From assembly GCA_023245415.1 (NCBI GenBank), contig JAHFKJ010000002.1, positions 12,286 to 76,285 of the forward strand: DNA of 64,000 nt, written 5' to 3'. Source of the stretch: Candidatus Gottesmanbacteria bacterium. Its GTDB lineage: Bacteria > Patescibacteriota > Microgenomatia > UBA10105. Positions 36,089 to 36,642 of the stretch are shown in pieces. The notes beneath the pieces are model-generated. The model did not search any database and was not told the origin of the DNA. It saw only the letters and a list, made by a program, of their open reading frames with translations. Every line of letters starts with the position of its first letter. The stretch's first letter is position 1. The translations under genes and the position numbers were made by a program.

Positions 36089-36188
36089 GAAATAAGTACC
36101 AATAATCCAATAAATACCAATAAGTACCAATTTCCAATTAATTTGTATTTATTTGATATTTGTTGATTTGTGGTGATTGGTATTTATT
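36089..36188 (+). repeat. 100-nt hairpin-forming insertion in a 16S variable helix (copy 1)
   Basis: Identical to 36543-36642. Its two halves pair through many G-U wobbles, so the hairpin is stable only as RNA on this strand. Confidence 0.7.
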
Positions 36189-36542
36189 TTCATAAGATCG
36201 TCGTTTTTACGAGCGGGGTGTCGTAAGCTAACGCGTTAAGCGGACCGCCTGGGGAGTACGATCGCAAGATTAAAACTCAAAGGAATTGACGGGGACCCGC
36301 ACAACCAGTGGAGCATGTGGTTCAATTCGAGACGAAGCGAAAGACCTCACCAGGGTTTGAAATTATAGAGTTCTATCTTCTAGAAATAGTTGAGATGCGC
36401 AAGCAGACTATAACAGCTGCTGCATGGCTGTCGTCAGCTCGTGCCGTGAGGTGTTGGCTTAAGTGCCAGAACGAGCGCAACCCCTATCCAATGTTACATA
36501 TCATTGGGGACCGCCCGCTTCTCAAAGCCTATGTAGCTTTGA

Positions 36543-36642
36543 GAAATAAGTACCAATAATCCAATAAATACCAATAAGTACCAATTTCCAATTAATTTGT
36601 ATTTATTTGATATTTGTTGATTTGTGGTGATTGGTATTTATT
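36543..36642 (+). repeat. 100-nt hairpin-forming insertion in 16S (copy 2, 1100-region helix); flanks look duplicated (cttctcaaa...tttgagaa on each side)
   Basis: Exact 100-nt identity with copy 1. Confidence 0.7.

Follow-up and report, generated by a model that had tools for sequence, protein, structure and literature searches.

In the stretch of DNA analyzed here (64,000 nt of contig JAHFKJ010000002.1, assembly GCA_023245415.1, from a Candidatus Gottesmanbacteria bacterium; hereafter the window), two different helices of one 16S rRNA gene, h26 and h40, carry the same 100-nt hairpin. The evidence supports the view that one of the two hairpins was copied from the other, and that they did not arise as independent expansions. 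The 100-mers are probably the distal rods of two modules of the intervening sequence (IVS) or expansion type, in one of which the rod was overwritten through ectopic gene conversion or a template switch.

An identical rod in two helices of one 16S rRNA gene

The gene and the two insertions that carry the repeat are laid out as follows.

35271..37829, + strand: 16S rRNA gene of Patescibacteria/Microgenomates type (Rfam RF00177, 1163 bits)
36071..36208, + strand: insertion 1, ~138 nt, replacing the terminal loop of h26 (E. coli ~841-845; Rfam alignment and fold)
36089..36188, + strand: rod copy 1, 100-nt identical tract (106 nt from 36083 with 1 mismatch), G+C 23%
36518..36669, + strand: insertion 2, ~150 nt, replacing the terminal loop of h40 (E. 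coli ~1166-1170; Rfam alignment and fold)
36543..36642, + strand: rod copy 2, 100-nt identical tract (106 nt from 36537)

The host belongs to the candidate phyla radiation (CPR/Patescibacteria), judging by the neighboring proteins and the closest 16S genes, which are chiefly those of Gottesman-, Levy-, Davies- and Woesebacteria. Its 16S gene, probably the only one in the genome, is interrupted by the two helix-tip insertions and by one intron, and its 3' end reads GGATCACCTCCTT at 37817-37829. The Rfam small-subunit alignment places 139 extra nucleotides in the loop of h26 (model position ~833) and 149 in that of h40 (~1157); the E. coli loop positions given above are our own reading of the E. 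coli sequence. The preliminary description had put the copies into two different 16S helices, which stands, and had located the second at ~1130, which does not, since it lies in h40. Insertion 1 folds as a continuation of h26 (-62 kcal/mol, z -9.6) and insertion 2 as a continuation of h40 (-66.5 kcal/mol, z -9.7). Neither insert (36071-36208, 36518-36669) matches an intron or ribozyme model in Rfam or holds an open reading frame (ORF) with a family match; sub-threshold Rfam matches within them (MIR9563, tmRNA) were dismissed as chance.

Each copy of the repeat makes up the distal, AT-rich rod of its ~140-150-nt insertion. The preliminary description had reported the copies as identical, and indeed positions 36089-36188 and 36543-36642 agree at 100 of 100 nucleotides and are unchanged in a second assembly; the extended match covers 106 nt with a single mismatch (36083-36188 versus 36537-36642). 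The tract has a G+C content of 23%, compared with 51% in the 16S exons and 40% in the window. All structures given here are predictions. On the + strand the tract folds into a long hairpin (-29.2 kcal/mol, z -5.0, with no shuffled sequence equally stable), as had been described, and on the - strand the fold reaches only -17.9 kcal/mol (z -1.6). The proposed RNA-strand specificity is thus recovered as a strand asymmetry, but its explanation by arms pairing largely through G-U wobbles is not: the 39 predicted pairs comprise 29 A-U, 6 C-G and 4 G·U. Tandem Repeats Finder (TRF) resolves the 5' arm of each copy into 4.3 tandem units of AATAAATACC and the 3' arm into 2.4 units of ATTTATTTGT, so that short units in one arm face complementary units in the other. 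Such 10-nt arrays in both arms are the signature of growth by slippage.

The rods stand on a base of two predicted hairpins

Both insertions are built in three layers: the host helix, two short and mutually similar base hairpins, and the AT-rich rod of ~10-nt units. The base hairpins of the window are the following.

36068..36090, + strand: h26 5' base hairpin A, 'type A' base, UCGUAAAGUC-GAA-GACUUUAAGA; orthologous to the bases of L016_h26, L056_h26, L054_h40 and L037_h40 (L numbers denote loci, followed by the helix)
36189..36213, + strand: h26 3' base segment B, a degenerate hairpin, UUCAUAAGA-UCGUCGU-UUUUACGAG
36517..36547, + strand: h40 5' base hairpin A, GCUUCUCAAAGC-CUAUGUA-GCUUUGAGAAAU; orthologous to the bases of L016_h40 and L096_h40
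36641..36671, + strand: h40 3' base hairpin B, UUCUUCUCAAAA-AUGUAAG-UUUUGAGAAGCG

These hairpins account for what had been taken to resemble a target-site duplication (TSD) around the second copy. The near-duplicate, CTTCTCAAAG (36518-36527) and CTTCTCAAAA (36643-36652), does exist, but its left copy lies within hairpin A of h40 and its right copy within hairpin B, their partner strands being CTTTGAGAA (36537-36545) and TTTTGAGAAG (36660-36669). The left copy is ~9-15 nt away from the repeat, depending on the edge chosen (36537 or 36543). We therefore rejected the TSD reading: the left copy does not adjoin the repeat, and both copies are stem strands of a base module that recurs in relatives. 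The four strands at h40 can form either two local hairpins, CUUCUCAAAGC-CUAUGUA-GCUUUGAGAA and CUUCUCAAAA-AUGUAAG-UUUUGAGAAG, or two stacked stems of one rod. Nearest-neighbor energies put the single rod 2-13 kcal/mol ahead of the four-way junction; local end hairpins of at least 10 bp, many with 3-4-nt loops, are present at 28/64 insert ends versus 7.6% of shuffled controls.

The same layout, S-loop-S' ... rod ... S-loop-S', recurs in the insertions of relatives at h26, h40 and h44. The commonest S is CTCAAAG / CTTTGAG, but it varies by lineage, all four copies changing together; variants include ACCAAG (L023), CCTTCAAG (L065), CATCAAAG (L024) and CGCAAAA (L044).

Related modules at h26, h40 and h44 of other genomes

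To place the window among its relatives, GTDB representative genomes were scanned with a 16S signature of the lineage, which yielded 67 loci, and the spans of h26 and h40 were measured between conserved anchors. Exon identities reported below derive from partial 16S genes, and several loci are mislabeled in taxonomy ('Gammaproteobacteria' binchicken metagenome-assembled genomes). Across the 67 loci the h26 span ranges from 51 to 240 nt and that of h40 from 59 to 232 nt, an enlargement of up to ~180 nt and the sporadic distribution typical of IVSs. Helix h26 (baseline ~55 nt) is enlarged in ~29/67 loci and h40 (baseline ~62 nt) in ~18/67; the two enlargements coincide in seven loci and in the window. 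Further hot spots of 16S insertion are h6, ~h17, reference position ~466 and the tip of h44. Insertions of 100-200 nt occupy h6 (16S reference ~55-90) in L010, L026, L038, L043, L050, L055, L073 and L074, and insertions of 240-340 nt occupy position ~466 in L049, L056, L057, L062 and L069. An all-against-all comparison found the h6 and ~466 insertions homologous at their own site only, a sign of vertical descent, whereas insertions at h26, h40 and h44 are homologous across sites.

Several such cross-site pairs were found: L003_h26 and L016_h40 (76% over 197 nt), L024_h26 and L044_h40 (87% over 124 nt), L011_h26 and L037_h44 (82% over 57 nt) and L037_h44 and L057_h40 (29/29 nt). The h26 insertion of the window itself resembles L054_h40 (83% over 52 nt), with which it has in common the TCGAAGA / CGTCGTCG base loops and an ACCAAT-type rod. 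Cross-site homologues keep their pairing, with four and five double-sided pair changes and none broken, bar one gap per alignment.

The most informative pair is L024 and L044, whose 16S exons are 97.9% identical over 793 nt. One rod, here called X, sits at h26 in L024 and at h40 in L044, and L044_h40 is a chimera: its hairpin A matches L024_h40, while its rod and hairpin B match L024_h26, with breakpoints in CTTTGA and TTTTTTGA. Helix h26 of L044 is itself occupied by a third rod, which has a relative in the distant L056 (~76% rod identity at ~75% exon identity). An intermediate with rod X in both helices would be in just the state found in the window. The ends of the shared tract vary from case to case (rod only in the window, rod and hairpin B in L044, the whole module in L003/L016), and gene conversion or template switching therefore fits better than a transposon with fixed ends.

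The nearest relative of the window, L016, has ~91% 16S exon identity. Its h26 base is orthologous to the h26 base of the window (CTCGYAAAGTCGAAGA ... TCGTCGKTTTTRCGAG) and its h40 base to the h40 base (CTTCTCAAAG ... CTTTGAGAA ... TTCTCAAAA ... TTTTGAGAAG), and its rods differ both from one another and from the rod of the window. Because L016 holds orthologous bases with different rods, both insertions are older than the species and only the rod is recent. Similarly, L096-L098 have an h40 module with a base of the window type and yet another rod. Other routes to close relatives gave little: contigs found via the neighboring TrmH/SpoU gene mostly stop short of the 16S gene, only L003 being useful; the best homologues of the LAGLIDADG protein of the intron are at most 80% identical, and L096-L100, reached this way, gave distant modules only; and in a metagenome scan with the type-A base hairpin 20/21 matches were chance, the remaining one (L088) being the L054 organism. 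In summary, similar material moves among the tips of h26, h40 and h44 in relatives, which bears out the earlier statement that the two hairpins are not independent expansion segments.

Origin of the second copy

We propose that rods turn over fast on old base modules, and that one rod, probably that of h26, may recently have been copied over the other by a non-reciprocal exchange between modules 454 nt apart. We infer that the exchange took place in DNA, where it could be ectopic gene conversion or a template switch during replication, and it may have been guided by CTTTRAG and TTCnnAARA, short motifs that border the rod in both modules. The direction would probably be h26 to h40, with the h40 copy as recipient: h26 is the probable donor because L054, a single distant case, pairs a type-A base with an ACCAAT-type rod.

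Several points weigh against this account. Among the loci found, no relative exceeds 91% 16S identity, and none shows the pre-conversion allele. A single distant module, L054_h40, indicates which copy was the donor. At ~7-10 nt, the homology beside the rods is short for RecA-type conversion, and template switching is assumed. Further copies were sought in the window, which is only ~6% of a ~1-Mb genome, and rods related to those in rRNA also occur outside rRNA, as in the topA spacer of L056, which a purely intragenic conversion leaves unexplained. Finally, the base may fold either as a rod or as a four-way junction, with energies favoring the rod and local hairpins far above chance.

An identical pair might also be an artefact, with one hairpin placed twice or two similar hairpins collapsed into one consensus. 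The source is a metagenome assembly, and an exact repeat of 100 nt exceeds many k-mers, though it is below typical insert sizes. The second assembly (L001, MEGAHIT k141 contig, ENA ERZ27276474) is an independently assembled 20-kb contig 99.98% identical to 33334-47685 of the window (14.3 kb); it differs at three positions, all in 16S exons, and reproduces both copies exactly. Moreover, the flanks of each copy are unique and pair with each other and with the correct 16S helix strands, other paths through the repeat would remove essential 16S sequence, and the same architecture is present in dozens of independent genomes. We rejected an artefact as very unlikely, and the collapsed repeat against which the preliminary description had warned finds no support. 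Even less credible is that two expansion segments grew by replication slippage under a shared mutational bias and converged without transfer. Both arms are tandem 10-nt arrays, and the expansion segments of one eukaryotic species share simple motifs (Hancock and Dover), but the 100 identical bases include a non-repetitive loop, irregular units and bulges, identity stops sharply at the base hairpins, and relatives whose exons agree at 98% still have wholly different rods. Since the non-repetitive parts match exactly, convergence is effectively excluded. Only slightly better placed, and still highly improbable, is the possibility that the two rods stay in the rRNA as functional expansion segments whose identity is maintained by selection for a common partner, such as a protein or a host-cell factor. 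The hairpin is upheld by compensatory changes, and the tips of h26, h40 and h44 are solvent-exposed according to structural knowledge. However, rods are hypervariable among close relatives and absent in many, which argues against a sequence-specific function, and identity kept by selection would not end exactly at module boundaries.

The most serious competitor, although in our judgment unlikely, is that the module or rod is a non-autonomous mobile hairpin element, similar to a miniature inverted-repeat transposable element (MITE), a palindrome-associated transposable element (PATE) or a REPIN (repetitive extragenic palindromic (REP) doublet forming hairpins). It would be moved in trans, for example by a Y1 HUH transposase acting on single-stranded hairpin DNA, with a preference for rRNA hairpin tips and spacers. 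One module family occupies three helices and distant lineages, and the rods of L044 and L056 are, at ~76% identity and ~75% exon identity, more alike than expected of fast-evolving sequence. Modules or rods of the same style are also found in the 16S 3' trailer or internal transcribed spacer (ITS; L014, L065), in 23S domain I (L014) and near 23S helix 25 (L020), as follows.

L014, 2658-2775 and 7812-7985; L020, 7085-7190; L065, ~2800-2880: same-style modules, a short GC hairpin (e.g. CUUGUGC-nnn-GCACAAG) followed by an AT-rich rod of tandem units

AT-rich rods further follow the topA stop codon directly at 1201-1279 of L056 and 1022-1100 of L038 (oriented coordinates). The former matches the h26 rod of its own genome in reverse orientation (80% over 76 nt) and the latter is related to the h26 rod of L033, so rods are not strictly bound to rRNA; at the orthologous spot downstream of topA (28706-28718) the window has a REP-type CACCC hairpin. 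Hairpins A and B also have similar stems in the same strand orientation, reminiscent of the left-end and right-end hairpins of IS200/IS605-type elements, although as short palindromes around a rod their mutual orientation is ambiguous.

In addition, the window encodes a Y1 transposase of the RAYT (REP-associated tyrosine transposase) type together with a REP family of its own, listed here.

555-1229, + strand: RAYT-type Y1 HUH transposase (motifs NHFHF and YIHLNPV; Pfam Y1_Tnp 32 bits, cut-off 23)
480-517 and 1232-1270: REP-like copies flanking the RAYT gene
28706-28718, 45844-45882, 50278-50316 and 53248-53286: REP-like copies in spacers

For ORF 555-1229 the NCBIfam model REP_Tyr_transpos gives 46.9 bits, short of its cut-off of 80. 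Inverted copies of a REP-like element of ~35 nt, GGTGTAAAGCTAATC-CACCC-TWA-GGGTG-T, border the gene, and four more are located in spacers; the REP core matches the window 6 times versus 0.74 expected. More than 7900 RAYT homologues of uniform length (~224 aa) occur in Microgenomates, and the same hairpins border the gene in the relatives L105 and L107; the literature searched gave no report of a REP-RAYT system in CPR bacteria. Machinery that moves hairpin DNA is therefore present in the window, but nothing links it to the rods: neither the rods nor base hairpins A and B are related in sequence to the REP that flanks the RAYT gene (GGTGTAAAGCTAATCCACCCTWAGGGTGT), and we rejected the connection.

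Against an element of this kind stand, furthermore, the absence of a TSD abutting the repeat and of constant termini, since tract ends differ in three cross-site cases. The dispersed copies recovered amount to none in the window (~6% of a typical CPR genome) and one spacer copy in L056. No further rod was detected in the window by blastn and nhmmer, nor any other CAAAG-type hairpin, and a z-score scan of its intergenic regions returned only tRNAs, terminators and small hairpins, without more AT-rich rods. Window-wide hairpin scans (minimum free energy stem length; ungapped G·U-tolerant extension) were non-discriminating, as shuffled controls scored equally high. Exact-word scans for the rod gave no matches in GTDB genomes (30-mer), JGI metagenomes (24-mer) and IMG/VR (26-mer), such scans being blind to copies with even one mismatch inside the word, and insertion 1 had no blastn match among PLSDB plasmids and INPHARED phages. 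Lastly, L016 already has modules at both sites, so that a new insertion is not needed to explain the window. The miniature mobile or homing element first suggested is thus right in that hairpin material moves between helix tips, similar rods also being present in spacers, and finds no support in a TSD, in fixed ends or, in the window and the collections searched, in further copies; recombinational cassette exchange fits better.

A broader version, to which we give comparably little weight, would make the insertions an undescribed family of hairpin-bounded mini-elements spreading among rRNA tips (16S h26, h40 and h44; 23S), rRNA spacers and intergenic terminator-like sites in Microgenomates. 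They might move by a single-strand hairpin route, through a Y1 HUH transposase or hairpin-primed template switching. If so, rRNA loop tips would be safe havens in gene-dense genomes, and the window would have caught an element just after its duplication into a second helix.

Possible fate of the rods in RNA

The tips of h26, h40 and h44 are solvent-exposed, and eukaryotic expansion segments are located there (h26 = es7, h44 = es12). The double-stranded rods, of ~65-80 bp, would protrude from these tips, and it is in our view about evenly balanced whether RNase III would cut them out of the precursor. An AT-rich duplex of 65-80 bp is a good RNase III substrate. Classical IVSs have an extended stem-loop in place of a small terminal loop and are excised by RNase III without religation (PMC4990558), and CPR bacteria retain the RNase III gene rnc (PMC12641178). 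Insertions in CPR rRNA are reported to be removed from transcripts, and short ones without an ORF are described as uncharacterized and suggested to be IVS-like (PMC11270868). Excision of both rods would leave the 16S rRNA in three pieces held together by the base stems.

The intron and other features of the window

36898..37699, + strand: intron, 802 nt, at E. coli ~1400, between UGUACA and CACCGCCCGU (sequence reading)

The intron contains an ORF (37221-37685) for a 154-aa single-domain LAGLIDADG_1 protein (Pfam, 92.9 bits) and a weak match to the Rfam model group-II-D1D4-1 (37 bits, 37130-37221). It is the known CPR class 16IS9 of PMC11270868; its non-ORF part of ~340 nt is seemingly too short for a full group II ribozyme.

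Positions 36243-36244, at the base of helix h26 in the 16S gene, are GA in the window and TC in L001. The latter restores two Watson-Crick pairs (GGACGC/GCGUCC), and the GA may be an error or a variant. The two dinucleotides are mutually reverse complementary; the third difference between window and L001 is C versus G at 36844. The gene is a stand-alone unit, followed by a terminator-like hairpin (~37960-37990) and then by tRNA-Cys and tRNA-Ile (window 37830-38230), and no 23S gene was found anywhere in the 64 kb. Directly downstream of the intact tRNA-Ile (38154-38226) lies a partial copy of its 3' half (38247-38287), which resembles the att-site remnant left by an integrated element; the two ORFs that come after it (38581-39435 and 39631-40548) have no Pfam match. 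The spacer that separates ORF 14589-14921 from ORF 15226-15495 contains an isolated 21-bp hairpin with 90% complementarity at 15092-15151 (ATTCTTTATTGATTTTGCAAC / GTTGCAAAATCAAGTAAGAAT), probably a terminator or operator. Finally, a gene for a Pif1/RecD2-like SF1B helicase (1277-2590, +) starts 47 nt downstream of the Y1 transposase gene, a pairing also seen in L101 and L102; an HUH nuclease with a Pif1 helicase is a Helitron-like combination.

Relation to known rRNA insertions and mobile hairpins

In structure and distribution, the insertions agree with IVSs and with the short-insertion class of CPR rRNA genes, and their tandem-unit arms agree with slippage-driven expansion segments. They depart from MITEs in having neither a TSD nor constant ends, from REPINs in not matching the cognate REP, and from introns. 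As in the bacterial rRNA IVSs of Salmonella, Leptospira, Campylobacter and Coxiella, which lie in 23S helices 9, 25 and 45 (PMC4990558), a peripheral helix has, in place of its small terminal loop, a long stem-loop that prolongs it, and the insertions are distributed sporadically among relatives. Similarly, the termini are complementary, the long duplex suits RNase III, and hosts often have small genomes with a single rRNA operon. In contrast to those IVSs, the inserts of the window lie in 16S and their family at h26, h40 and h44, and not at the 23S helices named, although similar modules were found in the 23S of L014 and L020. They further differ in their conserved two-hairpin base, in the presence of one sequence in two helices of one gene and in the swapping of rods between helices.

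The CPR insertion sequences (Brown et al. 2015; Tsurumaki et al. 2024, PMC11270868) are alike in host clade, 16S hot spots and, for the short kind (<200 bp), lack of ORF or intron features; they include the group-II-like LAGLIDADG_1 intron class 16IS9 at position 1400 that the 16S of the window also carries. Like that short kind, the two inserts add at least 100 bp relative to E. coli (139 and 149 nt) without an ORF or intron model. Group I and group II introns are set apart, since the inserts match no ribozyme core model and sit at variable loop tips. The sections of this literature that were searched do not mention a modular architecture, insertions homologous between helices, or a gene with two identical copies.

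The REPIN / REP-RAYT systems and the mini-elements derived from IS200/IS605 (PMC3337134, PMC3116915) likewise consist of ~100-nt hairpins, two palindromes around a spacer, without TSD, and a RAYT-type Y1 transposase with a REP family is encoded in this window. Here, however, the REP consensus is unrelated, no population of extragenic copies turned up, variation lies in the long spacer and the ends are inconstant. In a reduced genome, Rickettsia palindromic elements (RPEs) of ~100-150 bp are tolerated within functional genes, among them RNA genes. The rods are also palindromic, of similar size and within a functional RNA gene, but RPEs are many, dispersed and conserved in sequence, whereas the rods are confined, as far as seen, to rRNA tips and spacers and turn over fast.

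Eukaryotic rRNA expansion segments evolve by compensatory slippage and co-evolve within a gene (Hancock and Dover). Like the rods, they occupy variable helix tips, have short tandem units in both arms and share motifs among the segments of one gene. Unlike the rods, they share motifs and not exact tracts of 100 nt, and they stay in the mature rRNA; the tracts described here have discrete breakpoints.

Measured against the sections of the literature searched, three observations appear to be new: the two-hairpin base common to insertions at h26, h40 and h44, rods or whole modules that have repeatedly changed helix, with their breakpoints mapped, and a genome in which one essential gene has an exact copy of 100 nt in two of its helices. 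A 16S gene becomes longer through such insertions, which can mislead chimera checks and alignment-based taxonomy. They also put a direct repeat of 100 nt into an essential gene, and recombination between the copies would delete ~450 nt of 16S. To our knowledge, the origin and spread of rRNA IVSs and expansion segments have been unclear since their discovery, and no mechanism is known; their patchy distribution has been taken as horizontal transfer. In this lineage the process becomes visible in stages, with old bases at fixed tips, rods replaced at 2% 16S divergence, a mapped chimera and one rod in two helices, and the spread of IVSs and expansion segments becomes a testable question.

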